64,000 nucleotides of DNA from an uncultured Pseudomonadota bacterium (GTDB lineage Bacteria > Pseudomonadota > Gammaproteobacteria > Steroidobacterales > Steroidobacteraceae). The position numbers and the translations under genes are program-made. The stretch covers positions 122,345 through 186,344 of the forward strand of contig CAVUJF010000001.1 of assembly GCA_963741745.1 (NCBI GenBank). Direction: 5' to 3'. This document shows positions 29,556-56,797 of this stretch, in pieces (the first letter of the stretch is position 1; each line of letters starts with the position of its first letter). The notes under the pieces were generated by a model. The model was given only the letters and a program-made list of their open reading frames with translations. It had not been told where the DNA came from and searched no databases.

Positions 29556-29576
29556 GACCCGTGAGGCGTGTTATCG

Positions 29577-29600: not shown

Positions 29601-29609
29601 CCGGCTGCC

Positions 29610-32227: not shown

Positions 32228-32286
32228 TCTGTGTACCGCCCATATCCTTGCCCCGCATGGACGTGAGCGCGTGCGGCTTGCGCGTA

Positions 32287-33856: not shown

Positions 33857-33913
33857 GAGTTGAAGGGCCTCTCGTTGGCGGGCAGGATGCTGGGGCGCCG
33901 CAATCCCTGCGGC

Positions 33914-34807: not shown

Positions 34808-34876
34808 GGGCCCGGAAGGCGGGCGCAACGGCGCTTTCGATTGACTTACGCCCGCGCCACCGTACCCTCAGCGCCT

Positions 34877-35246: not shown

Positions 35247-35280
35247 TTTTTCTGCCTAGGGGCGCGGACGTGGTCCGCGC

Positions 35281-39273: not shown

Positions 39274-40419
39274 ATGCTCAACCGCCTCGGTCGGGGCTTC
39301 ATCTTCGTCGCCGGTTCGGTCGTCGGCGGACTCGCCCTTGCCTTCCTGGTCGTGGCGATGCGTCCGGACCTGATCCGCGAGGCCCCGGGCCCCGCCCCTG
39401 CTCCCCCGGCACCGGCGGCCGTCCCGACGACCAGCGCCGCGCCACCGGCGCACGTGAGCTACGCGGGCGCCGTCGAGCGTGCCGCCCCGGCGGTGGTCAA
39501 CGTCTACACCGCCCGCCTGGTGACCGAGCGCGTCGCCCCCTCGCTCGGGGAGCTGTTCGGGGACTACCTGCCGCGCTATCGCCAGCGGATCGAGCGCAGC
39601 CTCGGCTCCGGGGTGATCGTGGACGCTGCCGGCCACATCGTCACCAATCATCACGTGATCGCCAACGCCGACTCGGTGCGTGTGCAGCTGGCCGACGGAC
39701 GGGTGGCCGACGCGCGCATCGTCGGGCGCGACCCGGACACGGACCTGGCGGTGCTCAAGATCGACCTCACCCCCCTGCCGGTGGCTGACTTCGGCCGCTC
39801 GGACCTGCTGAAGGTGGGCGATGTGGTGCTGGCGATCGGCAATCCGGTGGGCCTGTCGCAGACGGTCACGCACGGCATCGTCAGCGCCACCAGCCGCCAG
39901 CAGCTGGGCATCGCCCCGCTCGAGGACTTCATCCAGACCGATGCCCCGATCAACTTCGGCAACTCCGGCGGCGCACTGATCGATTCGAGCGGGATGCTGA
40001 TCGGCATCAATACCGCCATCGTGGCCAAGAACATCGGCGTCGAGGGGATCGGCTTTGCGATCCCGGTGAACATGGTGCGCGGGGTGATGGATGAGATCAT
40101 CGCCCACGGGCGCGTCATCCGCGGCTGGATCGGCATCATCCCGGAGGATCTCTCGGCGGAGCAGGCCGAGCAGCTGCGCCTGGCGCAATCCGGGGTGCTC
40201 ATCGGTAATCTATATGTCGGCAGCCCGGCGCAGAAGGCCGGGCTGCTGCCGGGAGACCTGCTGCTGGCCATCGACGGGGTCGCCCCGCACAGTGCGCAGG
40301 ATGCGCTCGGCCGGATCGCCGCGCACAAGCCCGGCAGCACCACCCGCGTGCGCGCCCTGCGCGCGGGGCGTACGTTCGAGGTGGAGGCCGTGGTGGGTGA
40401 GAGGCCGCGTCCGCAGTGA
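39274..40419 (+). CDS. DegS/AlgW-type periplasmic serine endoprotease (S1C, single PDZ)
   Basis: It starts MLNRLGRGFIFVAGSVVGGLALAFLVVA (TM anchor). Catalytic contexts are VTNHHV, DLAVLK and GNSGGAL. There is one C-terminal PDZ-like domain. It is 381 aa. Confidence 0.88.
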   Translation: MLNRLGRGFIFVAGSVVGGLALAFLVVAMRPDLIREAPGPAPAPPAPAAVPTTSAAPPAHVSYAGAVERAAPAVVNVYTARLVTERVAPSLGELFGDYLPRYRQRIERSLGSGVIVDAAGHIVTNHHVIANADSVRVQLADGRVADARIVGRDPDTDLAVLKIDLTPLPVADFGRSDLLKVGDVVLAIGNPVGLSQTVTHGIVSATSRQQLGIAPLEDFIQTDAPINFGNSGGALIDSSGMLIGINTAIVAKNIGVEGIGFAIPVNMVRGVMDEIIAHGRVIRGWIGIIPEDLSAEQAEQLRLAQSGVLIGNLYVGSPAQKAGLLPGDLLLAIDGVAPHSAQDALGRIAAHKPGSTTRVRALRAGRTFEVEAVVGERPRPQ

Positions 40420-41087
40420 CGAAACTGAGCCTGCTGCGCTTTGACGCCCGTGCCGAGCTGGATGCGGCCCTGGCGGTGCGGCTGCGCGCCGCGCTCACCG
40501 CCCCGGGTGCCTCGGCGGTCATGCTGGCCGGCGGCAGCACGCCGCTGCCCGCCTACCGCGCCGTCGCGCGCCAGATCGGCGCGCACGACGACCGGCTGCA
40601 CGTGCTGTTCAGCGATGACCGCTACGTCGCGGCCGATGCGGCGGCGAGCAATTATTTCCAGTCCCGGCCGCTGCTCGACGTGCTCGCTCTGCCGAGCGAG
40701 TCGCTGCTGCGGGTGAACACGCAGCTGCCGCTGCCCCAGGCGGCGGCGGACTACGACCGGCAGCTGTCGGCCCTGCTCAGCTCCGGCGTGCGCATCGGGC
40801 TCGGGCTGCTCGGTCTGGGCGCCGACGGCCACACCGCCTCGCTCTTCACGGCGGCGGATCTGGAGCGCGCCCGCGGCCGCTACGCGATCGCGGTGCAGCG
40901 CCCGGACGGGCTGGACGCGGTGAGCGTGACCCCGGAGCTGATCGCGACCATCGGCGCGCCGCTGTTCGTGCTGGCCGGCCATGACAAGCAGGAAGCCTTA
41001 AGGCGCATGCTGGCGCACGATGAGGCGCTGGTGGCCTGGCGCGCCGTGCAGGGCTGCGCGCAGGTGGATCTGTGGGTGTGCCCCTGA
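40416..41087 (+). CDS. pgl: 6-phosphogluconolactonase
   Basis: 223 aa. The GTG start overlaps the protease stop (GTGA). Motifs are LAGGSTPLPAY and LLGLGADGHTASLF. Confidence 0.85.
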   Translation: MTKLSLLRFDARAELDAALAVRLRAALTAPGASAVMLAGGSTPLPAYRAVARQIGAHDDRLHVLFSDDRYVAADAAASNYFQSRPLLDVLALPSESLLRVNTQLPLPQAAADYDRQLSALLSSGVRIGLGLLGLGADGHTASLFTAADLERARGRYAIAVQRPDGLDAVSVTPELIATIGAPLFVLAGHDKQEALRRMLAHDEALVAWRAVQGCAQVDLWVCP

Positions 41088-41233: not shown

Positions 41234-42721
41234 ATGGATATGAATAGCTCGCCCGAACCGCAGATTCGCCAGGCCCAGGCGCTGCAGAGCGCCGGACGCC
41301 TGGCCGATGCCGAGCAGGCCTACGCGCAGATCCTGGCACGCTGGCCGGCGCTGCCGGACTGCTGGTACAACTTAGGGGTGGTCCAGCGCCTGCAGGGCCG
41401 CGCCGAGCAGGCGCTCGCCTCCTACCGTGAAGCCCTCAACCATGGGGTGTCCCGGCCCGAGGAGGTCCATCTCAACCGCGCGGTCATTCTCAGCGATGCA
41501 CTGCAGCGCGTGCCGGAGGCGGAGGACGAGCTGCACACGGCCCTGCGGCTGAACCCGGCCTACCTGCCGGCGATGCTGAATCTCGCCAACCTGCACGAGG
41601 ATCGCGGCGAGCGCGACCAGGCGCGCGCGCTGTACGGGAAGATCCTGACGCTGGATCCGATGAGCTTCCTGGCCTTTGCGCGCCTGGCCAACCTGATGCC
41701 GCGCGGCTCGCACGACGCGCAGCTGATTGCACGCCTGAGGTCCGCACTGGCGCGACCGGAGGCTTCCGCCGGCGACCGCGCGCACCTGGGATTTGCACTC
41801 GGGCGCGCGCTCGATGGGATCGGGGACTACCCGGGGGCCTTTGCCGCCTACCAGGCGGCCAACACCGACAGCCGCGCGAGCGCCGGCGTACCGGTGCGCT
41901 ACGACCGCCGGGCGCATGAGCAGATCGTCGACGAACTCATCGCCACTGCCTTGCCGGCACCGGTCAGCACGGATGGGCAGGCGCGGCCGCAGCCGGTATT
42001 TATCTGTGGCATGTACCGCTCCGGCTCGACGCTCACCGAGCAGCTGCTCGCCGGACACCCGGACGTGGGCGCCGGCGGCGAGCTACCCCTGCTGTCGCGC
42101 CTCATCAACAGCCAGCTGCTGCCCTTCCCGGCGGCCCTCGCCCGCGCCCCCGCCGCGCAGCTCGCGCGACTGGCGGCCAGCTACCGCGCCAGCGTCGCCG
42201 CGCTCTTCCCGGCGGCCGCCTTTGTCACCGACAAGCGCCCCGACAACTTCTTCTGCATCGGCCTGATCAAGACCCTGTTCCCGGAGGCCAAGATCGTGCA
42301 CACGGTGCGCGATCCCCTGGACACCTGCCTGTCGGTGTTCTTCCTGCACCTGGACCATCGCTTGAGCTACGCCCTGGATCTTAGCGACATCGGGCACTTC
42401 TACCGCCAGTACCAGCGCCTGATGGCGCACTGGAAGCAGCTCTACCCCGGCTCGATCATCGACTTTGACTACGACCAGTTCGTGAAGTCCCCCGAGCCGA
42501 CCGCTGCGCGGCTGTTCGAGGCGCTGGGGCTGGCATGGGACGCGCGCTTCCTGGACTTCCCGGGCCGGGCGCGCAGCGTGCGCACGGCGAGCGTGTGGCA
42601 GGTGCGCGAGCCGCTCTACCAGCACGCCTCGGGTCGCGCGCGGCACTACGCGCGCGAGCTGGCGCCGCTGCGCGCCGAGCTCGGCCTCGCGCCGGTGGAG
42701 TCCCGGGCAGAGGCCGGATGA
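41234..42721 (+). CDS. TPR-repeat / sulfotransferase fusion protein (ST1, intact)
   Basis: 495 aa. The N-terminal TPRs include AEQAYAQILARWPALPDCWYNLGVV and ALRLNPAYLPAMLNLANL. The C-terminal sulfotransferase core has the PAPS 5'-phosphosulfate loop FICGMYRSGSTLTEQLL and a 3'-phosphate motif VRDPLDTCLSVF. Confidence 0.8.
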   Translation: MDMNSSPEPQIRQAQALQSAGRLADAEQAYAQILARWPALPDCWYNLGVVQRLQGRAEQALASYREALNHGVSRPEEVHLNRAVILSDALQRVPEAEDELHTALRLNPAYLPAMLNLANLHEDRGERDQARALYGKILTLDPMSFLAFARLANLMPRGSHDAQLIARLRSALARPEASAGDRAHLGFALGRALDGIGDYPGAFAAYQAANTDSRASAGVPVRYDRRAHEQIVDELIATALPAPVSTDGQARPQPVFICGMYRSGSTLTEQLLAGHPDVGAGGELPLLSRLINSQLLPFPAALARAPAAQLARLAASYRASVAALFPAAAFVTDKRPDNFFCIGLIKTLFPEAKIVHTVRDPLDTCLSVFFLHLDHRLSYALDLSDIGHFYRQYQRLMAHWKQLYPGSIIDFDYDQFVKSPEPTAARLFEALGLAWDARFLDFPGRARSVRTASVWQVREPLYQHASGRARHYARELAPLRAELGLAPVESRAEAG

Positions 42722-43386
42722 CCGGCGCGCCCGAAGTCGTCCCGCTGTTCGCCACGCCCTTCGGTGTGGTCACCTTGCCGGGCGCGCGCGAGCTGAACGG
42801 CGCTCTGGCCACCCTGCTGGCCGCGCGAGCACGGCCCCCCTGGGTGGCTTCCGATCCCGGCTTGCCCGCCGCCACCGTGCGCAGCCGGGACGATCTCACC
42901 GAATGGCAGGAGGCCCCGGTGGCGCAGCTGCTTCAGGAAATGCTGGCGGGCGCAACGGCGGTGGCCGTCTCGATCAGCGATCTGGGCCCCGAGGAGTTTG
43001 CGACCCTGCGCCGCGAGGCGCGCGCCTGGTTCACCGTCATCGGCACCAACGGCTGCGTGCCCCCGCACAGCCATCCAAACACCTCCTGGGTGGCCGTGTA
43101 CTGCGTGACGGCACCCCCGGCCGTCCCGGCGCGTCCGGACAGCGGCGCACTGCGGTTACACGAATTCCGGCCCGGGGGGATGTTCGTGGATTCCGCCCAG
43201 GGTAGCGCGCGGATGCCCTACCGCCCCGGGCATTGCACCTGGCGGCCTGTTCCCGGCCAGATGGCGGTTTTTCCCGCCGCGATCACCCACGAAATCGCAC
43301 TTTTGCGTGCAGATGGCCCCCTCATCCTGGTCAGCGCCCGGGTCCGGTTCGTCGGCGTCGACCAGCCGTGGATGCCCCCGTGGTAG
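42718..43386 (+). CDS. Small 2OG-Fe(II) oxygenase-like protein (2OG-FeII_Oxy_5 / TIGR02466-like), copy 1
   Basis: 222 aa. The ATG overlaps the ST1 stop (ATGA). It has PLFATPFGVV, PPHSHPNTSWVAVYCV, GALRLHEFRPGG and GQMAVFPAAITHEI. This is the pattern I associate with that family, but it is more divergent than copy 2. Confidence 0.65.
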   Translation: MTGAPEVVPLFATPFGVVTLPGARELNGALATLLAARARPPWVASDPGLPAATVRSRDDLTEWQEAPVAQLLQEMLAGATAVAVSISDLGPEEFATLRREARAWFTVIGTNGCVPPHSHPNTSWVAVYCVTAPPAVPARPDSGALRLHEFRPGGMFVDSAQGSARMPYRPGHCTWRPVPGQMAVFPAAITHEIALLRADGPLILVSARVRFVGVDQPWMPPW

Positions 43387-44033
43387 CGCCCGCGCTCACC
43401 CTGCACTCCCGCTTTGCCGTGCCCGTCGCGGAGCTTCAGCTGAGCCCCTGCGAGGCGCTCAATGCGCAGCTGGAAGCACTGTTCCTGGCCCGCGAGACCG
43501 CTGAGTACCGCAATCCGATGCCCAGCCATACGCCCCAGCAGGAGCTGTTCGAGAGCCGGTTCAACCTGTTCCGCTGGCCGGAGCCGTGCGTGCAGCAGCT
43601 GCGGGCCTTCGTGCTGGAGGGGGTCGCCCAGACGGTGCTGCGGGCGACGGACCTGACGCTCCAGGACCTGAGACGCCTGAAGTTCCACAATCACACCTGG
43701 TTCCATATCACCCGGCATGCGGGCTCCTTCGTGACCCACAACCACCCGATGGCCTCCTGGTCGGCGGTGTACTGCGTGCGTGCCGGGCAGGCGGCCCCGG
43801 GTCAGCCCGACAGCGGTGTGCTGCGGCTGGCCGACCCGCGCAGCGGCGCCAATGCCTACCGCGATCCGGCCAACCAGCGCCTGCACCCGCCCTTTGCCCT
43901 GCGCCCGGTGGAGCTGCGCCTGGCTCCCGGGCAGCTGGTGGTCTTCCCCTCCTACCTGTTCCACGACGTCTCACCCTTCTACGGGTCCGACACCCGCATC
44001 ACGGTCGCCACGAACTGCTGGTTTGCCGAATAG
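43380..44033 (+). CDS. Small 2OG-Fe(II) oxygenase-like protein (2OG-FeII_Oxy_5 / TIGR02466-like), copy 2
   Basis: 217 aa. The GTG at 43380 overlaps the copy-1 stop (GTGGTAG). It has THNHPMASWSAVYCV, GVLRLADPRSGANAY, PGQLVVFPSYLFHDVSPF and RITVATNCW, consistent with an H-x-H...H facial-triad arrangement. Confidence 0.7.
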   Translation: MVAPALTLHSRFAVPVAELQLSPCEALNAQLEALFLARETAEYRNPMPSHTPQQELFESRFNLFRWPEPCVQQLRAFVLEGVAQTVLRATDLTLQDLRRLKFHNHTWFHITRHAGSFVTHNHPMASWSAVYCVRAGQAAPGQPDSGVLRLADPRSGANAYRDPANQRLHPPFALRPVELRLAPGQLVVFPSYLFHDVSPFYGSDTRITVATNCWFAE

Positions 44034-44129
44034 ACTATGTCCAGCCGCCACAACCCATCCTGCTGTGGCGTGAAAAACACACTTCAGAAGCGCGTGGATG
44101 CACGGCCGGCAAGCTTCGAATATTGTGTT

Positions 44130-44158
44130 TTGCGCGCACGTGTTGCGGCGTGTAGTAT
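44130..44158 (+). promoter_or_regulatory. Possible sigma70 promoter for the TonB-dependent receptor gene
   Basis: TTGCGC (44130-35), a 17-nt spacer, then TAGTAT (44153-58). It lies in the AT-richer 214-nt gap, ~90 nt upstream of the ATG at 44248. This rests on sequence match only. Confidence 0.25.
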
Positions 44159-44247
44159 TTCTGCAATAGCGGCTGCGAGCGCAACATTCCAGCAACTGCG
44201 CCGCTGTTGCACTTCTTTTCTACCGGAACTTCTGGGGAGATAAACGA

Positions 44248-47200
44248 ATGACGAAGTCCAATCGCGCGTTGCGACAGGCCGTCCGACTCGCTCTGGCGAC
44301 TGCCGCCAGCGCATCGGCACCGATCGCATTTGCGCAGACCGCACCTGCCACTGCCGCCGCTGCAGGGCAGATTCAAGAGGTGGTCGTCACAGGTTCGCGC
44401 CTGGCGCAGGCACCGAACGACGTGTCGATCAGTCCGATCACCAGTGTGAGCCAGGAAGACATCAAGCAGACCGGCTTGGTACGCACCGAGGACGTGCTCC
44501 AGAACCTGCCGCAGGTCGCTGTCGAGCAGACCTCGGGCAACTCCATCAGCTCGGTCGGCGTCGCGACGGTGAGCCTGCGCGGCTTAGGTTCGCAGCGCAC
44601 CCTGGCGCTGGTGAATGGCAAGCGCCTGAACCCCGGCGGTGCCGGTGGCGTTCCGGGCGGCAACGCCAGCGCTGCCGACATCAACCAGATTCCGGCGGAC
44701 CTGATCGAGCGCGTCGACGTGCTCACCGGCGGTGCCTCGGCCGTGTACGGCGCGGACGCGGTGGCCGGTGTCGTCAACTTCGTCATGAACACCCACTACG
44801 AGGGTGTCGAGGTCAATGCTGGTTACAGCTTCAACAACCACAAGAACGATGACCAGACGTACCTGAACTATCTGGCCCAGTCGCGATAACCCGATCCCGC
44901 CGAGCACGGTGAATACCGGCCAGAACCGCACCGCCTCGGTGATCATGGGCGCCAACTTTGCCGACGGCAAAGGCAATGCCACCGCCTACGTCACGTACCT
45001 GAACAGCTCGCCCGCGGTCGGCAACCAGTTCGACCATGCCGGTTGCACGCTGAACGGCAGCTCCTCGTCCCTGAGCCGCCCCGCCGTTCTGCGGCGGTTC
45101 CTCGACCAGCGCCGGCGGCCGCTTCAAACTGTTCGGCCTGGCCGGGACGGGAGCCACCGCCCACCAGGTCACGCTGCTGAACAACACGGTTGACAGGAAC
45201 ACGGGCGCCTTCCGCAACTACAACTTCGGTTAACGGACCCTTACAACTACGGTGCGCTGAGCTACTTCCAGCGCCAGGCCGAGCGCTGGACGGCCGGTGC
45301 GTTCCTGCACTACGACGTGAACGACCACGTGCAGGCCTACTCGGAGACCATGTACGCGCGCAACAAGAACCAGGCGCAGTACGGACCGAGCGGCGCCTTC
45401 GCCTACACCCCGATCCCGACCAGCTGCGACAACCCGCTGCTGACCGCGCAGGAAGTGGCGACCATCTGTACGCCGGCGAACCTCGCCGCGAACCAGGCCG
45501 TCTTCGGCTGGCACCGGCAACCAGTTCACCGAGTACGTGGGCCGCCGTAACGTCGAAGGCGGCGGACGCCAGGACAACTACCTGTCGAACTCCATTCGCC
45601 AGGTCATCGGCATCAAGGGCGAGATCAACAGCGCCTGGTCCTACGACATGTACGGTCAGGTCGGCATCACCGACTTCTCGGACTTCGAAGGCAACTTCCT
45701 CGGTACGCAGCAGATTGCCAATGCCCTGGATGTCGTCAAGAATCCGGCACCGTCAACGGCGCACGTCGTCGGTGTCGCCCGCGGGCGCTGCCGGTGTGCC
45801 GCTCGGCACTGCCCGGCGGCAACCAGCCGACCTGCGTGCCGTGGAACATCTGGCAGAAGGGCGGCGTCACGCCGGCAGCAGCTTGACTACCTGACGGTTC
45901 CGGCCAGCTACGGCTCGAACTCGACGGAGTACATCGTGGATGCCTCCACGACCGGCGACCTGGGCAAGTACGGCGTCCAGCTGCCGAGCGCCAACAGCGG
46001 CCTGAACGTGAACATCGGTACCGAGTATCGCTCGGAGCGGTTCAAGTTCAGCCCGGACTACATCTTCCAGAACGGCTTCCAGGCCGGCGGTGCACCGGCG
46101 GGCCCGATCGATGGCTACTTCCACGTCTGGGAAGGCTTCGTCGAAGGGCGCATGCCGCTGATCGAGGAGAAGCCGGGTGCGTACCTGCTGTCGCTCGAAG
46201 CCGGCTATCGCTACTCCAGCTACACGGAAGGGTTCAACACCAACACCTACAAGTTCGGCGTTGAATATGCCCCGATCCAGTCCTTGCGCCTGCGTGGCGG
46301 CTACAACCGCGCCGTACGCGCCCCGAACCTGAACGAGCTGTACCAGCCGGCAGCAATCGGTGCCGGCGGCACGGCCGACCCGTGCTGGGGCCCGACGCCC
46401 GGTCTACACGTTCCAGCAGTGCGCGCGCACCGGCGTGACGGCTGCGGAGTACGGCAACATCGACGTCAACGGCGCCGCGCAGATCAACACGCAGGTGAGG
46501 GGCGTCACCTCGCTGAAGCCGGAAACCGCGGACACGTTCACCATCGGTGGCGTGTGGCAGCCGGAGTTTGTGCCCGGGCTGTCGATCTCGGTTGACGCCT
46601 TCGACATCAAGATCAAGGACACGATCACCTCGCTGTCCTCGAACTCGATGCTGGCCAACTGCGCCCTCAACAATGACCCAACCTCCTGCTCGTACATCCA
46701 TCGTGGCGCCGGCGGCTCGCTGTGGTTCAACGTCGCCGAGTTCGTGGACGTGCCGTACCAGAACATCGGCCAGGTGGAGACCAAGGGTATCGACCTGGAA
46801 GGCAACTACCACCTGACCATGGGCAACATGGGCCGGCTGGCGTTGAACCTCACGGGCACCTACACGGACAGCTTCACGGTTGCCCCGATCCCGGGTGTCA
46901 ACTATGACTGCGCCGGTTACTGGGGCTCGACCTGCGGTGCGCCGCTGCCGAAGTGGCGCCATGTCCTGAATGCGACCTGGGGCACGCCCTGGGCCGGGCT
47001 GGACCTGACGCTGCGGTGGCGCTACATCGGAACCTCGGATACCGATCGTTCGAGCTCCAACCCGTCGCTCGCGAGCCCGTACTACCCGTACACGGCGCAC
47101 ATCCCGGCCTACAACTACGTGGACGTCTCGGCGGCAATGCCGTTCGGCCATGCGTTCGAAGCCCGCGTCGGTATCAACAACATCGCCGACAAGAACCCGC

Positions 47201-47322
47201 CGTTGATCCTGAACGGCACGTACTCGGACTGCCCGAATACGAGCTGCAACGACAACACCTGGGTGGGCACGTACGACACGCTGGGCCGGTACATCTACAT
47301 GAACCTGACCGCGAAGTTCTAA
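44248..47322 (+). pseudogene. TonB-dependent outer-membrane receptor, at least 7 frameshifts as given
   Basis: Signal peptide plus plug domain are in ORF 44248..44889 (MTKSNRALRQAVRLALATAASASAPIAFAQ, IQEVVVTGSRL, VSLRGLGSQRTLALVNGKR, RVDVLTGGASAVYGADAVAGVVNFV). The barrel continues through frames 2,0,2,0,1,0,1 (position mod 3). Junctions lie near 44876, 45075, 45231, 45505, 45750, 45875 and 46395. It ends with the OMP-type terminus YIYMNLTAKF. Total length is 3075 nt (3n). Confidence 0.85.
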
Positions 47323-47353
47323 GCGAAGCTTCCAGCTTCTTGACGATATTGAC

Positions 47354-47380
47354 GGCGGGCTTCGGCCCGCCGTTTTTTTT
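47354..47380 (+). terminator. Rho-independent terminator after the receptor gene
   Basis: GGCGGGC-ttcg-GCCCGCC is followed by G and T8, about 30 nt after the stop. Confidence 0.75.
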
Positions 47381-47439
47381 GCCTGCGCCCTGGGCACGGC
47401 CGCGGCGGGCGCGCTCGAGCAACGTGGCATCATGCGCGC

Positions 47440-49075
47440 ATGGCACGTGACCTCAAGGCGGACCAGGAATTGCTCGGCAAGGTCCTGGCACACGCCCAGA
47501 ACCGCAACATCCGCCAGGCCGCCGCGCTGGCCGAACAGGCCCTCGCGGAGGGCTTCGAGCATCCGCTGCTGCTCAATGTCGCTGGCGACGCGCCTCGAGG
47601 AGGAGGGCAAGCTCGAGGAGGCCGCCCGCCTGCTCGAGCGTGGCGTCGCGCTGGCCCCGGCAGACGTCCCGGTGCGCAACGCGCTCGCCCTGGTCCTGCA
47701 GCGCCTGGAGCGGCCCGAGGAGGCGCTCGCGCACGTCGAGGTGATCCTCGCGCAGCACCCGCAGCTGGCCTTTGCGCACGCGAGCAAGGGCAACGCACTC
47801 ATCGCCGCTGGGCTCGCTGGGCCTTGCGCAGGCGAGCCACCTGCGCGCCCTGGAACTGGATCCGGACAACATTGCGGCCATGGGCTCGCTGGCCTCGATC
47901 GCCACCCACCGCGGCGATCATGCCGGCGCGCGGCGCTGGGCGGAACGCCTGCTCGCCCGCGTGCCGGGATTCCCGGATGCCGTGCTCAGCCTTGCCGCCG
48001 CCGACCTGGCCGGCGGCGACGACCGCCCGCGCAGAGGCCGCCCTGCGCGAGCTGCTCGCGGACCGCCGCGCCGGGGCCACGGACCGCGCCCGGGCGCTGG
48101 GCCTGCTGGGCGACGTGCTGGATGCCGCGGGGCGCTACGCGGAGGCGTTCGAGGCCTACCGCGCCTGCAACGAGCTCACCGGGCAGACTGTACCGCCGCT
48201 TCGCGCGAGCCGAGCCTGCTCGACCTACACCCGCACGCTGACGGAGACGTTCGCCGCGATCGCGCCGGCGCTGGCCGGCCACGGCCGCCGGCAGCGCCGC
48301 TGCCGCGGACGGCCCGGCGCAGCACGTGCTGCTCATGGGCTTCCCGCGCTCGGGCACGACCCTGCTCGAGGTGATCCTCGACGGGCACCCGCAGCGTGGT
48401 CAGCCTCGAGGAACACGATCTGTTCACCGAGGGTGTGCTGCGGTATCTGCACGATCCACGCACGCTCGGCCCGCTGCTGCGCGCGAGCGAAGAGGAGCTG
48501 GAGAGCCTGCGCGCGGCCTACTGGCGCCGGGTTCGCGCCGGCGGGGCGCAAGTCGCCGGCAAGGTGTTCCTCGACAAGCACCCGCTCAATACGCTCAAGC
48601 TGCCGCTCATCGCGCGACTGTTCCCGCAGGCGAAGATCCTGTTCGCCCGCCGCGACCCGCGGGACGTCGTGCTCAGCTGCTTCCGGCGCCGCTTCAGGAT
48701 GAACCCGGCCATGTACCAGATGCTCACGCCTGGAGAGCGCGGCGCAGTTCTATGACGCGGTGATGGAACTGGCCGCGCGGGCGCAGCCGGTGCTGGGCCT
48801 TGCCTGGTACGACGTGCGCTACGAGAGTCTGATGGCGGATTTTGCCGCCGAGACCCGCCGCATCTGCGAGTTCCTCGGTATCGAATGGACCGGCGGCATG
48901 AGCGAGTTCGCATCCCGCGTGCAGTTGCGCGAAAGCGCGACCCCGAGCACCGCGCAGCTGGCGCGCGGCCTGGACCCGTCCGCGGTCGGGCCACTGGCGT
49001 CACTACCGCGAGCAGATCGGCCCGTTCGAGGCGGTGCTGTCACGCTGGACCGCGCTCTACGGGATGCCTCCCTAG
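47440..49075 (+). pseudogene. TPR-repeat / sulfotransferase fusion protein (ST2), about 10 frameshifts as given
   Basis: Eleven consecutive protein-like pieces each resume one frame further on. They run from MARDLKADQELLGKVLAHAQ...PLLLNV, through LATRLEEEGKLEEAARLLERG... and LGLAQASHLRALELDPDN..., to QHVLLMGFPRSGTTLLEVILDGHPQ. Then follow VVSLEEHDL...ARRDPRDVVLSCF..., LESAAQFYDAVMELAA... and HWRHYREQIGPFEAVLSRWTALYGMPP. The 1636 nt minus 10 gives 1626 = 542 codons. Confidence 0.7.
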
Positions 49076-49094
49076 CGCGCCGCGCTCTGCAGGG

Positions 49095-49592
49095 TCACTG
49101 CGTACGCTGCGCCCGGTAGGTGTGATGCGAGGGCGTCGTGAGCAGGTAGGAGCCCAGCGAGGCACGCCGGATCGTCACCTCGCCCCCGGACTGCGGCGGA
49201 CCGCTCGCATCCAGGTAGGTCCAGGTCTGCCCGTTGTCCAGCACCACGAAGACATTGCCCTGACGGTCCGCGCTTGCACTGACCACGTGCGCCGAGATCA
49301 GCTGCGTCGCCTGCTCGGTCGGTGCCGTGTGCGTGCTCATCCCGAAGCCACCCGCAGCCGCCGGGCACCGCCGCTCCCGGCGCGGCGGCCTGCGCGGCCG
49401 CGGGCGCGGCGGCGCTGCCGGTTGCAGCTTGGCGACGGCGAGCGAGTCGTAACAGGCCAGGCGCTGGTCGACGGCGACAATCGCCGCGCAGTGCGCCAGC
49501 TCGCTGACACTCACCGTCGGTGCCGGCGCCGCCGCCGCCACGGCGATGCCAGCCAGCGCCGGCAGGAGCCAGCCTCTGCGGCCGCCGCTCAC
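49095..49592 (-). CDS. Small secreted/periplasmic protein of unknown function
   Basis: 165-aa ORF. The ATG overlaps the stop of the upstream hydroxylase gene (ATGA). It has a signal-like N-terminus (WLLPALAGIAVAAAAP), then RLACYDSLA and a C-terminal DNGQTWTYLD...TIRRASLGSYLL. The odd basic middle (PPRPRPRRPPRRERRC) may hide two compensating frame errors. Confidence 0.5.
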   Translation of the reverse strand: MSGGRRGWLLPALAGIAVAAAAPAPTVSVSELAHCAAIVAVDQRLACYDSLAVAKLQPAAPPRPRPRRPPRRERRCPAAAGGFGMSTHTAPTEQATQLISAHVVSASADRQGNVFVVLDNGQTWTYLDASGPPQSGGEVTIRRASLGSYLLTTPSHHTYRAQRTQ

Positions 49593-50901
49593 AAGCCCTT
49601 CTCCGCCGCGAGCGCATAGTGGCTCACGTACACCTGGGTCGCTGCGGTGATCATCTCGCGCTCGGCGGCGCTGAGCAGCGGATTCCAGATGTCGAATATC
49701 AGGATGGCGCGCGGGGTGTCGGAGTCGTTCCAGGCTTCGTGCTCGATGGTGTCATCGAACACCCAGGCCTTCCCCGGCACCCACTCGCGCGTGGTCCCGC
49801 CCACACGGAAGCCGCAGCCCGGCGGCACCACGAGCGGCAGGTGGACGGTGAGGCGCGTGTTGGTGACGCCGGTGTGTGGCGGGATTTTCGTCTTGGCGTC
49901 GAGCACGGAGAAGAATGCCGTCGGGGCGCGGTGCTCAATGCGCGGGCGCGGCGCATGCGTCCTCGAGAGTGCGGGCGGTCACCGGGCAGCGCGCGATGTG
50001 CCCCTCATCCGGTGCGCCCTGGTTCCACAGGAAGTACGCGCTCCAGCGCCGCGAGCGGTTCAGTTCCCGGAACTGGTCGAGCGGCATGTCCGGCGGGTAG
50101 TCGAGGTAGGGCTGCAGGCCCTCGCGGTCTGCTATCAGCACGCGCAGCAGCTCGGCGCGGATCTGCTCGCTCGCGCCCTCCAGCGCGTCCAGCCACGGGA
50201 AGTCGGCGCGCTCGAAGAACTCGATCGCCGGCAGCTCGGGGAAGTACATCCAGGTCGGTTGCGAGTGGTAAATGCTGCGCCGGCCCATCAATGCCTCGAG
50301 GCAGGCATCGACCCGCCGCTGCGCGGCGCCGCCGTGGCGCGCGCGAATCGCCGCCAGCGGCGCCTCCAGGGCGCTGGTGAGCTCGGCCAGATCCTTCTCG
50401 ACCAGCCGTTTCGCACGATCGACCGCCTCGCGCAGGTGCGGCGCCGGCTCGGTGCCCGGCGGGATGCAGGCAAGCGCGCTCTGGTAGGTGCGCGCGGCGT
50501 TGTGCAGGTCGCCGGCATCCTCCTGGTGGGCGCCTTTCTGCAGCAGGGCGGACAGGTGGCGCGGCGCGAGCTCCAGTGCCTTTTGGATCGCGTCCATCTC
50601 CTCGGCGCGGCGCCCCAGCGCCTTGAGGCTGCTGGCCAGGTTGGCCCAGAGGGACGGATGGTTGGGATCCACCTGGGTGGCGCGCTCGAACAGGGCGCGC
50701 GCCTGGGCCGCCTCGCGGCGATCGAGCATGCGGATTCCCAGTTCGTTGAGCACCGCCGGGTGATTGGGCACGCGCTGGGCGAGCGCCACCAGGATCTGAT
50801 CGGACTCCGCCGGCGCGGCCGGCGGCGGCGGCGGCCTTGGCGGACTGCAGGGTGCGAATTACCGCGGCATCATCCAGGACAGCAGGCGCTGAGGTGTTCA
50901 A
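49589..50901 (-). pseudogene. TPR-like N-terminal region fused to an aspartyl/asparaginyl beta-hydroxylase (AspH-type 2OG oxygenase) domain, 2 frameshifts as given
   Basis: A TTG start at 50901 gives MNTSAPAVLDDAAVIRTLQSAKAAAAA. It continues in ORF 49935..50789 (ESDQILVALAQRVPNHPAVLNELG...YFPELPAIEFFERADFPWL...). The catalytic C-terminus is in ORF 49589..49906 (KIPPHTGVTNTRLTVHLPLVVP...WVFDDTIEHEAWN...ILIFDIWNP). Junctions lie in a GCC-triplet run near 50815 and near 49945. The 1313 nt minus 2 gives 437 codons. Confidence 0.75.
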
Positions 50902-50989
50902 TCCGTCATTCCCGGTAAGCGTGCAAGATCAGGCGATTATACGCGCGCCCTGCACTGCCGCGGCAGCTCGCGGAGCCGCGCGCGGCTGC

Positions 50990-51019
50990 ATTGACTACCC
51001 CGGCGCAGTCGGCTTATAT
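50990..51019 (+). promoter_or_regulatory. Possible sigma70 promoter for ST3 in the divergent gap
   Basis: TTGACT (50990-95), an 18-nt spacer, then TATATA (51014-19), ~100 nt upstream of the ST3 start. On the opposite strand a perfect TATAAT (50941..50936) lies 35 nt upstream of the hydroxylase TTG start, but without a good -35. Confidence 0.35.
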
Positions 51020-51118
51020 ACCGGCCGCCGTCGCAGGAAGACGCGCGCGCACCCCCGAGCGCGGACTGGACTCCTGCTGCCAGCGCGCTGGCGCCACAGC
51101 ATCCCTGGAGTTCCCGAC

Positions 51119-53120
51119 TTGACCACCAGTGCCTCCGCAGATCTCGAACTCATGCGCGCCTCGTTGCTGCTGGAGTCGGACCCGGCGGGTGCGGCGCGGC
51201 GCGCCAGCGAGATCCTCGCCCAGTTTCCCGGGCACGCCGAGGCGAGCCTGCTGCTGGCTACCGCCTGCCGCAACCTCGGCGAGCCGGCCACCGCGGCAAG
51301 CGTGCTGGAGACGGTCGCGGCCGCGACTGCGGACTCGCCCGCCATCCTGCTGGAGCTCGGGCGCGCCTACGCCGCCGGCGGGCGCATTGCCGAGGCCATC
51401 GCGACCCTGGAACGAGCGGTGGCGGCCGATCCGAAGTTCGCCGACGGCTGGCGGGAGCTGGCTGCCCAGCGGTTCGTGGCGGGCGATACGCTCGGCGGCG
51501 ATCAGGCCTACGAGCGCTATACGCTCCTGTGGCGCCAGCCGCAGGAATTGCGTCGATGCGGTCCAGGCCTTGGGCGACCACCGCATCGAGGCCGCCGAAC
51601 AGATCCTGCGGCGGCGCCTGAAACAATTTCCGCACGATGTCGCCGCGCTGCGGCTGCTGACCGAGGCCGCGTTGCAGCGCGAGGACGAGGTCAAGGCCGA
51701 GCAACTACCTCAGGCAGTGCCTCGCACTCGCGCCGGGCTTCGCCGCCGCTCGCTACGATCTGGCGCAGGTGTTGCTTTCCAAGCAGCACATTGCAGAGAT
51801 GATGAGCCACCTGGCGCGGCTGCTCGCGACGCAGCCACGTAACATCAGCTACCTGGGCCTCAAGGCGCACGGCTTGCGCCTGCTCGGGCGCAACGACGAG
51901 GCGATGGCCCTGGTCGAGGAGTTGGTCGCCGAGCACCCGCACGAGGAGCAGGTGTGGGTATTGTACGGGGGCATGCTGCGGGAAATGGGCGAGAAGGCCC
52001 AAGCGATCGATGCCTTCCGCAAGGCCATCGCCTTGCGTCCCGGCTCACCCGGCGCGTATGTGAGCCTCGCCAATCTCAAGACGTTTCAATTCAGCGACGA
52101 GGACCTCGCGGCCATGCAGCAGCAGCTGGCGCTCGAGAGCGTTCGCGGTGTCGAGCGCGTCCAGCTCGAGTTCGCCCTGGGCGCTGCCTACGAATACCGC
52201 AACGAATTCGCCGCGTCCTTCGAGCACTATGCGCGCGGCAATAGCCTGCACCGGTCCACGCTGTATTACGATCCCGGGTTCGTGACCGAGCGCGGTGCAG
52301 CGTACGCGGACGTTGTTCAATGCGCAGTTCTTTGCCGAACGAGCAGGGCTGGGGCAGCCAGCAGACCGATCCGATCTTCATCATCGGCCTGCCCCGTTCC
52401 GGCTCGACGCTCTTGGAACAGATGCTCTCCTGTCACTCGCAGATAGAGGGCACGCGCGAGCTTCCCGATCTCCCCGTCCTCGCCCTGGAGCTGGTGTCAG
52501 AGGTAGAGACGCCGACGCAGGCGACGTTGTTCGAGAAGTTCGAGGCGCTGAGCTCCGAGCAGGTGGCAACCCTCGCCGCGCGTTATCTGGAGAGCACTCG
52601 CAGGCATCGTCAGCTCGGCAAAGAGCGCTTCGTCGATAAGCTCCCCGGCAACTGGTCGCTGCTCGGGTTCGTGCTGCTGCTCTTTCCGCGCGCCTCGATC
52701 ATCGACGCGCGCCGCCATCCGCTGGGCAGCGGCTTCTCCTGCTACAAGCAGCTCTTCGCCCGCGGCCAGCAGTTCACCTATGACCTGCGGGAGCTCGGGC
52801 TCTTCTCCCGCGACTACATCACGCTCATGCAGCATTTCGATGAAATCTTCCCGGGCCGGATACACCGCGTGCACTACGAACAGCTCGTCAAGGAGCCCGA
52901 GGGCGAGTTGCGCAAGCTGCTCGACTACTGCGGCCTGCCGTTCGAGGAGCAGTGCCTGCGTTTTCACGAGAATCGCCGCGCGGTGTCCACGCTCAGTTCC
53001 GAGCAGGTCCGTCAGCCGCTCTACACCGAGAGCGTGGACCACTGGCGCAACTACGACGAGTGGCTCGGGCCGCTGAAGAGCGCGCTCGGCGAGCTCGTTG
53101 CGCAATACCCAGTGCAGTAA
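51119..53120 (+). pseudogene. TPR-repeat / sulfotransferase fusion protein (ST3), 4 frameshifts as given
   Basis: The pieces, in order, start with LTTSASADLELMRASLLLESDPAGAARRASEIL...YERYTLL and VDAVQALGDHRIEAAEQILRRRLKQFPHDVAALRLL...KAEQL. Then come LRQCLALAPGFAAARYDLAQVLLSKQH...YYDPGFVTER, VQRTRTLFNAQFFAER and QGWGSQQTDPIFIIGLPRSGSTLLEQML...HYEQLV...VAQYPVQ. Junctions lie near 51545, 51710, 52290 and 52345. The 2002 nt minus 4 gives 666 codons. The start is TTG at 51119 or ATG at 51152. Confidence 0.75.
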
Positions 53121-53130
53121 AGGGCCGCGC

Positions 53131-55333
53131 GTGACCGACACCCAGGCGAGGCTCGAGAGTGCGCGCGCCCTGCACCGGCAGGGACGGATCGCGGAGGCCA
53201 TGCCGCTGTATCGCGAGGTGCTCACGCTCGAGCCCCGCAATGTCGAGGCGCTGCAGCTGCTCGGCGTGGCGCTGGCCAGCATGGGTGACTTTGAGCGCGC
53301 CACCGTGCTGTTGGCTGCCGCGGCGCAGCTGGCGCCCGCCAGTGCCGCCATCCAGGCCAATCTTGCCGGTGCGTTGAGCGGTGGCGGGCGCTGGCAGGAG
53401 GCACTGACCGCCTACGAGCGTGCCTTGCGCAGCGAGCCACGGCTGCCGGCGGCGCTGCGCGGGCAGGCGGCCGCGCTCATGCAGCTCGGGCGCCACGAGG
53501 CGGCCACTGCCGCCTTCCGCAAGGCGGTGCGGCTGGTGCCGGGGGACGACCAGGCCTGGAACGGTCTCGGCGTGGTACTGGAGCGTGCCGGTCAGGCCAC
53601 CGAGGCGCGCGCGCAGTTTGTGCGGGCGATCGAACTCAATGCCGCCAACGCGGAGGCGCATCACAACCTGGGACTGCTCGATGCGGCCGCAGGACGACCC
53701 GTCGAGGCACTGGCGAGCATCGAGCGCGCGCTGGCCCTGCAGCCGGCCAATCCCGTTCTCATGGTCAACCACGGCACCCAGTTACTGGCGCTCGGCCGGG
53801 CGCAGGAAGCACTGGGCAGCTTCGAGCGCGCGCTCACCCTGCAGCCTGAGGATGCGGCCACGCATTACAACCGCGGACTGGCGCTGTTCGCGCTCAAGCG
53901 TCATGCGCAGGCGCTGGCAAGCTTCGAGCGCGCCCTTGAATCCGCACCGGACCAGCGTCCCAGCGCAGTTGTGGCGCGGCAAGAGCCTGCTGGAGCTCGG
54001 GCGGCCGGCCGAGGCGCTCGCCGCCTTCGAGCGCGCGCGGCAGGCGGCGCCTGATGAGTTCGAGGTGCACATGCAATGCGGGAGCGCGCTCGCACAGCTG
54101 TCCCGCAACGAGGAGGCGCTGGCGAGCTTCGAGCGCGCGCAGGCCCTGAATGCCGGCTCGCCCGAGGCGGTCAACAATCGCGGCGCGGTGCTCGTGCGGC
54201 TGTTCCGGCCCGCAGAGGCACTCGAGGATTTCAGCCGCGCGCTCGCGCTGCAACCGGACTACGCCGAGGCCCTGATCAACGCCGGCAACGTGCTGCGCGG
54301 CCTGGGCCGCTATGAGGAGGCGCAGTCTCACCTGGCGCGCGCGCGCGAACTGAAGCCGCAGGATCCGACCGTGCGCTGGAGCCAGGCAGTGCTCAAGCTC
54401 GGCCTCGGGGACTTCCGCGGCGGCTGGCCGCTTTACGAGGCACGCCTGGAACTGCCGCCGGCGGATCGGCTGCGACATCCGGGGCTGCCGCGCTGGAGCG
54501 GCGCCGAGCCGCTCGCGGGGCGTTCGCTGCTGGTGTATGCCGATCAGGGACTGGGCGACACGCTGCAGTTCTGCCGCTACGTGCCGGTGCTCGAGGCGAT
54601 GGGGGCACGCGTGGTCTTCGAGGTGCAGCCGGTACTCACGCAGCTGCTCGCATCACTGCCGATGCGCGGCACCCTGCTCGGGCGTGGCGAGGCCCTGCCC
54701 CCCTGCGAGCTCTGCATCCCGCTGGCCAGCGTGCCGCTGGCCCTGGATACGCAGCTGGAGACGATCCCCGGCGCCGTGCCCTACCTGCACGCCGACCCGC
54801 AGGCGGTGGCCACCTGGAAGGAACGCCTCGCGCAGCTGCCGGGATTCGTGGTGGGACTGAACTGGCACGGCAACCCGGAGGCCGAGAAGCTCTCGGCGCT
54901 GCAGGCACGCTCCTTTCCCCTCGCCGCCGCCGCACCGCTCGCCCGGGTGCCCGGAGTGAGCCTGGTCACGCTGCAGAAAGGTGCGGGCGCCGAGCAGCGC
55001 GCGGCGGTGGCCTTCGCTTCGCAGCTCACCCAGCTGACCGATCCGTCATACATGGGAGCGGCGGAAATCGCCACCGAGACCGCGGCGATCCTGTCGGGGG
55101 TCGACCTGGTGATCACGGCCGACACGGCCCTGGCACACATGGCCGGCGCACTGGGGGTGCCGGTGTGGGTCATGCTGCAGCACGTGCCGGACTGGCGCTG
55201 GCTCACCGAGCGCTCCGACAGCCCGTGGTATCCGACGATGCGCCTGTTCCGCCAGCGCGCACCCGGGGACTGGGACGAGCTGTTCGCACGCGTCGCCGCG
55301 GCACTGGCCGCCCTGCTCCCCGCGCAGCCCTGA
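53131..55333 (+). pseudogene. TPR-repeat protein fused to a GT9 (heptosyltransferase-like) domain, 1 frameshift as given
   Basis: The GTG at 53131 lies 10 nt after the ST3 stop. About 10 TPRs follow (AMPLYREVLTLEPRNVEALQLLGVAL ...). The frame changes near 53950 (ORF 53098..54054 to ORF 53420..55333). The C-terminal domain has LLVYADQGLGDTLQFCRYVPVL, VGLNWHGNP and LVITADTALAHMAGALGVPVWVML. The 2203 nt minus 1 gives 734 codons. Confidence 0.75.
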
Positions 55334-55369: not shown

Positions 55370-56797
55370 TCAGCCCTTGGCCGCCGGCGTGCGCCCGCAC
55401 GAGCGCGTCCAGTCCTCCGGCTTCGCCCCCGGGTTGTGCCAGCCGCAGGGGCCGACGATCAGCTCCTCCGCCTGCGGCGGGCCCCAGGACCCGGGCGGGT
55501 ACTCCAGCGGCGCACTGCCGGTGCGCAGCACCGGGTCGACGATGGCCCAGGCGGCTTCCACCTCGTCTTCGCGCGCAAAGTGCGCCGTGTCACCGATCAG
55601 GGCGGCACTGATCAGCACTTCGTAGGCGTCCATGTCGTCCTTCTGCTGCTGGGCGACGTAAAGCTCCACGTCGGTTCCGTTCATGGCCGGCCCTGCCTTC
55701 TTGGTTTGCGCGCCCAGGGCGATGGCGACATCCGGACCCAGACGGAAGCGCAGGTGATTCGGCTGCTCGGGGCCGAGGGCGCCGAAGACATTGGCCGGCG
55801 GGGGCTTCAGTTCCACCACCACCTCGGTGGCGGTCACCGGCAGGCGCTTGCCGGCGCGCAGGTAGAACGGCACGCCGCCCCAGCGCCAGGAGTCGATGTG
55901 CAGCGTCAGGGCCGCGTAGGTCTCGACCCTGGAGTCCGGGGCGACGCCGGGCTCGGCGCGGTAGCCCCTGAACTGGCCACGCAGGATCTCGTCCGGCACT
56001 ACGGGGCGCACGGCCTTGAGCAGCTTCACCTTCTCATCGCGCAGTGACTCGCCTGCCATGTTGACCGGCGGCTCCATGCCCAGCAGCGCCACGATCTGCA
56101 GCAGGTGGTTCTGCACCACGTCGCGGATCGCCCCGGTCTCCTCATAGAACTTGCCGCGACCCTCCACGCCCAGGGTTTCCGCCATCGTCACCTGGACGCT
56201 GCTGACGTAGTTGCGGTTCCAGACCGGCTCGAGGAAGGAGTTCGCGAAGCGGAAGAACAGCAGGTTCTGCACCGCCCCCTTGCCGAGGTAGTGGTCGATG
56301 CGAAAGATATTGGCTTCCGGAAAGTGTGCGTGCAGGGTCTTGTTCAAGGCGCGCGCGGAGGCCAGGTCCCGGCCGAAGGGCTTCTCGATGACCACGCGCG
56401 CGGCCTGCGGGTTGCCGGTCGCCGCCAGGTGTTCGATGACCACCGGGAACATGCTCGGCGGGATCGCCAGGTAATGCAGCGGCCGCTGCGCGTTGCCGAG
56501 GGCCTTGCTCAGTAACTCGAACGTGGCGCGATTGTTGTAGTCGCCATCGACGTAGCGCAGCAGGCCGACCAGGCGGGCGATCAGCGCCTCCTCCGCATCC
56601 GGCGCGAAGGCCTTGAGGCTCTCGCGCACGCGCGCGCCAAGCTGCGCAAGGTTCCAGCCCTGGCGCGCCACCCCGACCACGGGGACCGTGAGCAGGTTGC
56701 GCCGCACCAGCTGGTAGAGCGCGGGGAAGATCTTGCGGTAGCACAGGTCCCCGGTCGCCCCGAACAGCACCATCGCATCGCAGTCACGGCGTTCCAA
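55370..56797 (-). CDS. zwf: Glucose-6-phosphate 1-dehydrogenase
   Basis: 475 aa with [20 protein letters not shown] and the active-site motif RIDHYLGK. The start is TTG at 56797 or ATG at 56773. Confidence 0.95.

Follow-up and report, generated by a model that had tools for sequence, protein, structure and literature searches.

The subject of this work is a cluster of nine co-localized genes in a 64,000-nucleotide stretch of contig CAVUJF010000001.1 (assembly GCA_963741745.1, positions 122,345 to 186,344 of the forward strand), from an uncultured gammaproteobacterium of the Steroidobacteraceae; this whole stretch is referred to below as the window, and coordinates are counted from its first nucleotide. 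The cluster is flanked by pgl (40416-41087) and zwf (55370-56797, minus strand), and its content is as listed in a preliminary description made from the sequence alone, namely enzymes related to sulfotransferases, 2-oxoglutarate (2OG)-Fe(II) oxygenases and a glycosyltransferase, together with a TonB-dependent receptor and a small secreted protein. Tetratricopeptide repeat (TPR) arrays are fused to five of the eight cluster enzymes. The features are given here one per line, with orthologue lengths taken from the close relative introduced below:

41234..42721, + strand: TPR-sulfotransferase 1 (ST1), 495 aa, intact, signal peptide absent
42718..43386, + strand: 2OG-Fe(II) oxygenase-like protein A (oxyA), 222 aa, intact
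43380..44033, + strand: 2OG-Fe(II) oxygenase-like protein B (oxyB), 217 aa, intact, alternative start at 43368
44248..47322, + strand: TonB-dependent receptor, orthologue 1019 aa, seven extra-base frameshifts here
47351..47384, + strand: intrinsic terminator 3' of the receptor gene, with a GC-rich stem of 10 bp and then a run of T
47440..49075, + strand: TPR-sulfotransferase 2 (ST2), orthologue 539 aa, nine frameshifts here
49095..49592, - strand: small secreted protein, cluster-specific, 165 aa, linker scrambled here by two compensating frameshifts
49589..50901, - strand: TPR-AspH beta-hydroxylase, orthologue 436 aa, two frameshifts here
51119..53120, + strand: TPR-sulfotransferase 3 (ST3), orthologue 653 aa, four frameshifts here
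53131..55333, + strand: TPR plus GT9-fold glycosyltransferase-like protein, 733 aa once an extra base near 53952 is removed

When the gene junctions are read directly, the ST1 stop and oxyA start overlap as ATGA at 42718, the oxyA/oxyB junction is GTGGTAG at 43380, and ST3 is separated from the GT9-like gene by a 10-nt gap (53121-53130), all as previously described; at the fourth junction, where the start of the small-protein gene overlaps the AspH stop at 49589-49592, the plus strand reads TCAC, so that the overlap is GTGA on the coding strand and not ATGA as had been stated. The native GC content and the lack of a flanking tRNA gene reported earlier are confirmed: the GC content of the cluster (0.64-0.72) matches that of its surroundings, there is no tRNA gene anywhere in the window, and no repeats flank the cluster. 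No Rfam element was found inside the cluster, and a promoter scan of it was uninformative. The terminator 3' of the receptor gene is kept in many related loci; when the six spacers were compared by blastn with 84 loci in search of a hidden precursor peptide or regulatory RNA, only this terminator and N-terminal coding sequence proved to be conserved beyond close relatives. No enzyme of the cluster begins with a hydrophobic or signal-like stretch (the N-termini being the part examined for membrane segments); signal-peptide-like N-termini occur only in the receptor and the small protein, which are the sole non-enzymes of the conserved set.

The preliminary description had read these genes as whole, overlooking some 25 extra bases between 44884 and 53952 that break most of them. 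As the reference for frame correction a relative at 89% nucleotide identity was used (L002, an ENA metagenome contig) in which all cluster genes are intact, the small protein there having 174 aa. Frameshift-aware alignment of the L002 proteins to the window DNA shows that six of the nine reading frames are discontinuous, with 25 shifts packed into ~9.1 kb, every one of them consisting of one or two extra bases. They fall in the receptor gene (~44884, 45074, 45232, 45509, 45778, 45881 and 46398), ST2 (~47581, 47807, 48018, 48190, 48222, 48271, 48395, 48729 and 48988), the small-protein gene (~49417 and 49368), AspH (~50808 and 49958), ST3 (~51551, 51705, 52294 and 52343) and the GT9-like gene, where the 102-nt period of the TPR array becomes 103 nt between 53887 and 53990. 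No shift is found in oxyA, oxyB, degP or cytb, nor in ST1 past its start codon. Two other analyses give the same picture: a plot of GC content at third codon positions by frame, with a Viterbi path over frame states, shows the coding frame switching repeatedly across 44.9-54.0 kb, and tblastn searches of the window with the L002 proteins yield chains of high-scoring segment pairs in differing frames, those of the receptor lying in three.

Once their frames are corrected, the broken genes share 85-93% identity with their orthologues (91.2% over 1019 residues for the receptor), and their ratios of nonsynonymous to synonymous substitution rates (dN/dS) of 0.14-0.24 (receptor 0.166, ST2 0.140, AspH 0.140) compare with a range of 0.04-0.16 in flanking genes that are intact and of 0.09-0.32 in the cluster's own three intact genes. 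The corrected GT9-like protein aligns gaplessly at 92% identity with an intact 733-aa metagenomic protein (P0241) of the same 90% cluster. Similar lesions occur in essential genes elsewhere in the window: ftsW is frameshifted near 20500 (region 20400-20600) and murF near 23810 and 23440 (region 23400-23850), while the lpoA/LppC gene, which looks split between open reading frames 32287-33198 and 33014-33958, is probably frameshifted near 33160 as well; the three broken genes point to indel errors across the contig. Because ftsW and murF share the lesion, constraint is normal, only insertions are present and an intact 733-aa counterpart exists, the extra bases in the cluster are almost certainly locally dense consensus or assembly errors and not gene decay. 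Contigs of metagenome-assembled genomes (MAGs) built from long reads may thus hold dense patches of insertion errors that are easily read straight through.

To evaluate conservation, species-representative genomes were scanned with oxyB, giving 373 related stretches, the best 80 of which were examined; all 80 are MAGs labelled Steroidobacteraceae, Steroidobacterales or unclassified Gammaproteobacteria/Proteobacteria. Loci were annotated by tblastn with intact proteins, and the counts given here are from the 55 species-level loci that span 18 kb or more. The genes oxyA, oxyB and TPR-AspH are present in all 55 loci, in every one of which oxyA adjoins oxyB. The receptor and at least two TPR-sulfotransferases are each found in 52 of the 55, three TPR-sulfotransferases in 40, and the small protein, detected despite its divergence, in 42; pgl lies inside the fetched flank in 17/55, and the cluster often occupies the same position between pgl and zwf. 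The comparison of gene neighborhoods recovers the complete core in 50/55 loci of these Steroidobacterales-type MAGs. Gene membership is retained through at least three gene orders, and one sub-lineage has a minimal cluster that lacks ST2 and the GT9-like gene. The module consists of seven core genes, expanded to nine in this genome. Given the native GC content, the absence of tRNA genes and flanking repeats, and the presence of the cluster in all 55 related species loci, it is an old, vertically inherited functional module of Steroidobacterales-type Gammaproteobacteria; the term island that had been applied to it is therefore a misnomer, and the earlier reservation that the genes might never occur together outside this genome falls away, since the unit recurs in dozens of species of the one clade. 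In a plasmid collection only four matches to TIGR02466 were obtained, all distant and none with the cluster, one of them (in Sulfitobacter) adjoining an AspH-domain gene. The host clade, Steroidobacterales, is represented among the matches almost solely by MAGs, many from soil samples.

Some relatives show additional elements at the locus. Beside the main cluster lies, in some of them, a second, divergent mini-set comprising a receptor, an oxyB-like and a TPR-AspH-like gene at 42-54% identity (L014, 1355-6871; L017, 4688-7699; L060, 8463-9098), which suggests that the receptor-oxygenase pairing is a duplicable unit of its own. In L017 (contig CAIYLH010000105) the space between the receptor gene and ST2 contains an inserted reverse transcriptase of group II intron type (RVT_1, GIIM), which leaves both genes uninterrupted. 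In 15 of 88 loci an operon of the bufferin type, for a ribosomally synthesized and post-translationally modified peptide, is found 0.5-8 kb from the module, with a Cys-rich BufA-like precursor, an MbnB/TglH-like enzyme and HvfC_N (L085, at 19024-20651, L034, L041, L048, L042, L047, L033, L032, L022, L081, L031, L073, L017, L021 and L015); it is absent from the window. At those loci that were compared by coordinates, this operon adjoins whichever gene terminates the module, an adjacency that could reflect inherited synteny or a functional link.

The sulfotransferase assignments are direct for two of the three proteins in the window, ST1 matching Pfam Sulfotransfer_3 (E 1.9e-40) along with TPR families and the ST3 fragment 52320-53120 matching Sulfotransfer_3 (E 1.3e-48); for ST2, Sulfotransfer_1/_3 and TPR are found in the L002 orthologue. 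Among solved structures the only sulfotransferases matched by ST1 are the protein-tyrosine sulfotransferases (TPSTs). ST3, compared with PDB sequences, matches the CurM sulfotransferase (CurM ST) first (1.3e-11) and then the TPSTs (9e-10), and overall the relationship of the cluster sulfotransferases to TPST1/2 has E values from 3e-8 to 9e-10. The P-loop PRSGST, corresponding to the 5'-phosphosulfate-binding motif, aligns with those of TPST and CurM ST. ST2 and ST3 also match NoeE weakly (NCBIfam, far below cut-off).

Both small oxygenases belong to Pfam 2OG-FeII_Oxy_5 (oxyA, E 4.5e-8; oxyB, E 1.5e-15), the pair scoring 57.9 and 33.8 bits against a PF13759 gathering score of 27, whereas their scores with NCBIfam TIGR02466 (44.8 bits, and 33.9 for oxyA) are below the cut-off of 62.5. 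oxyB has 1623 homologues at E <= 1e-5, cyanophage proteins among them. An H-x-H...H motif is invariant in 34 sequences, oxyA included, and would form the metal-binding triad of both proteins. The AlphaFold2 (AF2) model of oxyB (mean predicted local distance difference test, pLDDT, 87.6) is predicted to adopt a double-stranded beta-helix fold; its matches include 3bvc, PolD, PHD2, two uncharacterized Rhodobacterales proteins and the EF-Tu prolyl hydroxylase (P4H) of Pseudomonas.

For the AspH gene the window fragment 49935-50789 (minus strand) reaches only E 1.9e-4 with Asp_Arg_Hydrox (21.8 against a threshold of 22.6 bits), whereas the L002 orthologue gives E 1e-43. Residues 100-418 align collinearly with human AspH (5jqy, 109-427; E 4.6e-29) over 319 residues spanning both TPR and oxygenase regions, and the motifs PHTGxTN, EHE(A/V)W and R-x-I-x-I-x-D, whose aligned residues we take to be the iron and 2OG ligands, are common to the cluster protein and human AspH. 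Judged from this alignment, the TPR-AspH arrangement is the canonical architecture of human AspH rather than a novel fusion. Human AspH differs in being membrane-anchored in the endoplasmic reticulum lumen, where it acts on disulfide-bonded epidermal growth factor (EGF) domains, while the bacterial protein is predicted to be cytoplasmic. No EGF-like partner for the cluster AspH was found: the consensus C-x-D/N-x4-F/Y-x-C does not occur in the small protein, and the nearest sequence in the receptor, C-A-V-N-D-D-P-T-S-C, does not fit it.

The GT9-like protein scores 21.5 bits with Pfam Glyco_transf_9, just short of the cut-off of 22 and over 31 residues only, so that family membership is not established at the level of sequence. 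The AF2 model of its C-terminal domain (pLDDT 89.7) has as its top Foldseek matches 3tov, 1psw (WaaF), 2h1h (WaaC) and 4rap (TibC), with E values of 1.6e-7 to 1e-4 and TM scores of 0.5-0.59, placing the modeled domain in the GT-B fold nearest to GT9 enzymes. TibC is a cytoplasmic enzyme that glycosylates a protein before Sec export. With a crude repeat parser applied to the TPR arrays in search of an Asn ladder like that of OGT, Asn was found at position 6 in some repeats of the GT9-like protein and in few elsewhere.

In the window the receptor gene gives matches to Pfam Plug and TonB_dep_Rec_b-barrel in three pieces within 44248-47322, while the orthologue shows both domains (Plug E 2e-22, barrel E 8e-35), a signal-like N-terminus and seven Cys pairs; no specific NCBIfam receptor subfamily cut-off was reached, including those for siderophore receptors. 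The domain assignments of the preliminary description consequently hold, by Pfam for the sulfotransferases, oxygenases and receptor, by way of the L002 orthologue for AspH and through fold matches of the AF2 model for GT9. The profile searches that it had suggested bear out Sulfotransfer_3, 2OG-FeII_Oxy_5, the plug and barrel and, on the orthologue, Asp_Arg_Hydrox, but leave Glyco_transf_9 and TIGR02466 below cut-off.

Features of the small secreted protein are a signal-like N-terminus, the motif C...RLxCYD, which is invariant, a linker rich in Ala/Pro/Ser/Thr and, at the C-terminus, an LDNGQxW ... GS domain. In an alignment of 52 orthologues the linker is 26-89 aa long with 39% Ala and 19% Pro. 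Among 5.8e9 proteins it has only 74 homologues; even P0327, at 31% identity the most distant of those looked up, is encoded in a pgl-zwf cluster, its gene lying between those for AspH and the receptor. The small protein also matches VasI weakly (E 0.004). A different secreted protein, of ~150 aa with a signal peptide, is found in one sub-lineage only, where its gene separates oxyB from the GT9-like gene; its linker is rich in Ala and Pro, and its conserved C-terminal motif is GYK(L/I)(E/D)MRHGEKYFC (L086, 10703-11185; L085, 11780-12223; also L016, L022, L032, L033 in two copies, and L036). As a general substrate of the module this protein was rejected, being found at only seven loci and absent from the window.

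Gene content, relationships of fold and family, the lack of signal peptides on the enzymes and conserved linkage are observed; from them we infer a substrate, a chemistry, an order of reactions and a role for the receptor, as follows. The reading favored here, to which a probability of about 0.35 is assigned, is that the cytoplasmic enzymes tailor a polypeptide by hydroxylation, sulfation and, in some lineages, glycosylation, with the small protein as the leading candidate substrate and the receptor as its partner in the envelope. Three Fe(II)/2OG oxygenases, namely the AspH-type Asp/Asn beta-hydroxylase and the pair with PHD/P4H fold, would first hydroxylate the polypeptide; two or three PAPS (3'-phosphoadenosine 5'-phosphosulfate)-dependent sulfotransferases of TPST/CurM type would then sulfate Tyr and/or the newly made hydroxyls; and in some lineages the GT9-fold transferase would add a sugar. 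Docking of the polypeptide would fall to the TPR arrays that five of the enzymes carry, and the small protein, modified prior to Sec export, might work in the envelope with the TonB-dependent receptor of the cluster, for example as an anionic capture or delivery partner.

The small protein is the best candidate substrate because it is confined to the cluster, has an Ala/Pro/Ser/Thr-rich linker and a C-Y-D motif (the sole lead to a tyrosine-sulfation site), and is encoded by a gene translationally coupled to AspH. The closest characterized relatives of the catalytic domains appear, by sequence and modeled fold, to be mostly protein modifiers (TPST, human AspH, PHD2/P4H and TibC). Three hydroxylases together with three sulfotransferases also fit the hydroxylate-then-sulfate scheme set out in passages of Iyer, Abhiman, de Souza and Aravind (2010; NAR 38:5261; PMC2938197).

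Several points weigh against this proposal. No precursor peptide, protease, exporter or scaffold enzyme is linked to the cluster. Relatives that do not act on proteins score about equally (CurM ST, PolD, WaaC/WaaF, OlsC and LpxO): the polyketide sulfotransferase CurM ST outranks the TPSTs for ST3, the nucleoside-antibiotic enzyme PolD ranks second for the oxyB model, the lipopolysaccharide (LPS) heptosyltransferases outrank TibC in the fold matches, and the top NCBIfam matches of the AspH domain, albeit far below cut-off, are the lipid hydroxylases OlsC (E 1e-26) and LpxO. The small protein fits the AspH consensus as C-x-D only, and we know of no precedent for the modification of a protein by sulfation in the cytoplasm followed by its Sec export. 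The GT9-like gene was seen in 13/55 loci, a count that is too low as the gene often lies beyond the 10-kb flank, and the best 80 loci represent one clade, so that the conserved linkage is in part shared ancestry. Thus, of the protein or peptide sulfation-hydroxylation-glycosylation system that had been proposed earlier, what stands is that most catalytic relatives act on polypeptides, while neither a substrate nor a precursor nor an exporter was found; what argues for its coupling to outer-membrane transport is gene linkage.

The main rival reading, which is more doubtful, is that the enzymes tailor an amino acid- or peptide-derived metabolite resembling a siderophore or chalkophore, with a scaffold made elsewhere, the receptor serving for re-import and the TPRs for assembly of an enzyme complex. 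Beta-hydroxy-Asp is an iron ligand in siderophores, and methanobactin operons unite the sulfotransferase MbnS with the receptor MbnT. The similarity of ST3 to CurM ST, the cyanophage homologues of oxyB and its likeness to PolD are in keeping with such a product, as is the proposal in Iyer et al. (PMC2938197), as far as its passages on them go, for neighborhoods with cyanophage-type 2OG oxygenase, beta-hydroxylase, sulfotransferase and TonB-like receptor; a paper on genome mining for methanobactins (PMC3621798) contains both the terms "TonB-dependent" and "sulfotransferase". However, in none of the 55 loci is a non-ribosomal peptide synthetase (NRPS), ATP-grasp ligase, NRPS-independent siderophore (NIS) synthetase, MbnBC-type enzyme, precursor or exporter a constant feature, and the receptor is below every siderophore-receptor cut-off. 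The long TPR arrays on five of the eight enzymes, and the full substrate-docking architecture of the human protein hydroxylase that the AspH homologue retains, also speak against a small-molecule substrate.

Improbable, in our estimation, is a role in import, in which the receptor would take up an exogenous compound that the cytoplasmic enzymes hydroxylate, sulfate and glycosylate for use or detoxification, in the manner of the receptor-2OG oxygenase pairs Fiu-YbiX and PiuA-PiuC. Conjugation commonly proceeds by hydroxylation and then sulfation or glycosylation, the receptor-oxygenase linkage recurs (as in the second mini-cluster of L014), and the receptor gene has a promoter region and terminator of its own. 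Yet no inner-membrane transporter is linked, PAPS-consuming sulfation would be costly for a nutrient, and the TPR arrays and the cluster-specific secreted protein are left unexplained.

Another improbable reading is that the enzymes act on an envelope glycolipid (LPS core, lipid A or ornithine lipid), hydroxylating its acyl chains, sulfating it and adding heptose. It would account for the OlsC and LpxO matches of the AspH domain, the weak NoeE matches of ST2 and ST3 and the fact that LPS heptosyltransferases are the best fold matches of the glycosyltransferase domain, and lpxC, lptC and lptA-like genes do lie elsewhere in the window; but the OlsC, LpxO and NoeE matches all fall well short of family cut-offs, the human protein hydroxylase gives a better and longer alignment, TPR included, with the AspH homologue, the enzymes are devoid of hydrophobic or signal-like N-termini, and the receptor and small protein would again be unaccounted for. 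Finally, it is highly improbable that the cluster is a set of decaying pseudogenes with real frameshifts, as the packing of 25 shifts into 9.1 kb against none in the 11.5 kb upstream and the truncated GT9-like call of 420 aa (P0121) in the source assembly itself might suggest, and decay was rejected because lesions of the same type break the essential ftsW and murF, only insertions are present with no in-frame stops or deletions, dN/dS and orthologue identity are on a par with intact neighbors, intact near-identical proteins exist, and the sequences closest to the window are long-read metagenome assemblies, with a split ST1 in one of them.

Four characterized systems offer partial parallels to the cluster. 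In Xanthomonas oryzae RaxST, a cytoplasmic PAPS-dependent sulfotransferase related to TPST, modifies the ribosomally made exported peptide RaxX. Unlike the present cluster, that system links the precursor gene raxX and the exporter genes raxA/raxB to a sulfotransferase without TPR and has no hydroxylases, glycosyltransferase or TonB-dependent receptor. The second parallel is human AspH, with the differences in location noted above. The autotransporter heptosyltransferases TibC/Aah and the LPS heptosyltransferases WaaC/WaaF share with the GT9-like protein the GT-B fold of GT9 type, the sequence similarity being sub-threshold at 21.5 bits; we know of no TibC or Waa enzyme with a TPR array of ~410 aa such as the GT9-like protein carries. 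Methanobactin, lastly, is a peptide-derived product whose operons encode both the sulfotransferase that O-sulfates it and the receptor that imports it, but they also contain the precursor MbnA, MbnB/C and an exporter and lack TPR fusions, AspH and P4H-like oxygenases.

No characterized system of the same composition was found in literature searches, which covered the oxygenase families TIGR02466 and PF13759 and the joint occurrence of receptor, sulfotransferase, TPR and hydroxylase, or in family searches, and the cluster therefore matches no characterized pathway, as the preliminary description had supposed. Its statement that no function had been described nevertheless requires amendment, since neighborhoods of related type were assigned a predicted role in the relevant passages of Iyer et al. 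(PMC2938197). Like the cluster, those neighborhoods combine cyanophage-type 2OG oxygenases, Asp/Asn beta-hydroxylase relatives, sulfotransferases and a TonB-like receptor, and the logic put forward there, purely as prediction, is hydroxylation followed by sulfation of a co-encoded secreted protein or a siderophore-like metabolite. The general association and the hydroxylate-then-sulfate idea are thus already published as predictions. As described in those passages, the neighborhoods additionally contain tryptophan halogenases, SapC, NRPS, PhyH-methyltransferases, PAPS synthetases or collagen-like/tail-collar proteins, which the cluster lacks, while TPR fusions on nearly every enzyme, a GT9-fold protein and a small VasI-like protein are features of the cluster that do not appear in them.

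In its most specific form the polypeptide reading becomes unlikely: a pathway of secreted-protein modifiers of animal type (AspH, prolyl-hydroxylase-like, TPST-like and protein glycosyltransferase) would decorate a dedicated Ala/Pro-rich secreted protein in the cytoplasm, which, once hydroxylated and sulfated, would act in capture or delivery for a dedicated TonB-dependent receptor. If true, this would be a new type of metallophore or hemophore, itself a protein that is made on the ribosome and then heavily modified. To our knowledge, there is essentially one known bacterial system of protein sulfation, RaxST, and we know of no bacterial AspH homologue keeping the TPR-oxygenase architecture that has an assigned substrate. 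As the module has two non-enzyme members only, the list of candidate substrates is short, which makes directly testable the 2010 prediction that a secreted protein encoded in the same neighborhood is hydroxylated and then sulfated, a TonB receptor serving for uptake.

Outside the cluster, the TPR-GT41 (OGT-like) gene at 29957-32227 (minus strand) is confirmed as real (E 3e-80), and with it the earlier count of six TPR-enzyme fusions in the window holds. This gene lies in a patch of 59-60% GC (29000-32300) within DNA of ~70% GC, which suggests a separate, possibly horizontal, origin. An RNase P RNA gene (class A, 312 bits) is located at 34876-35251 (plus strand) between rsmI and sspB, and a c-di-GMP-I riboswitch (68 bits, E 3e-11) at 10299-10382 (minus strand) lies 5' of a Peptidase_M23 gene (9267-10187, minus strand), at a site between lpxC and secA that adjoins the division and cell-wall cluster.

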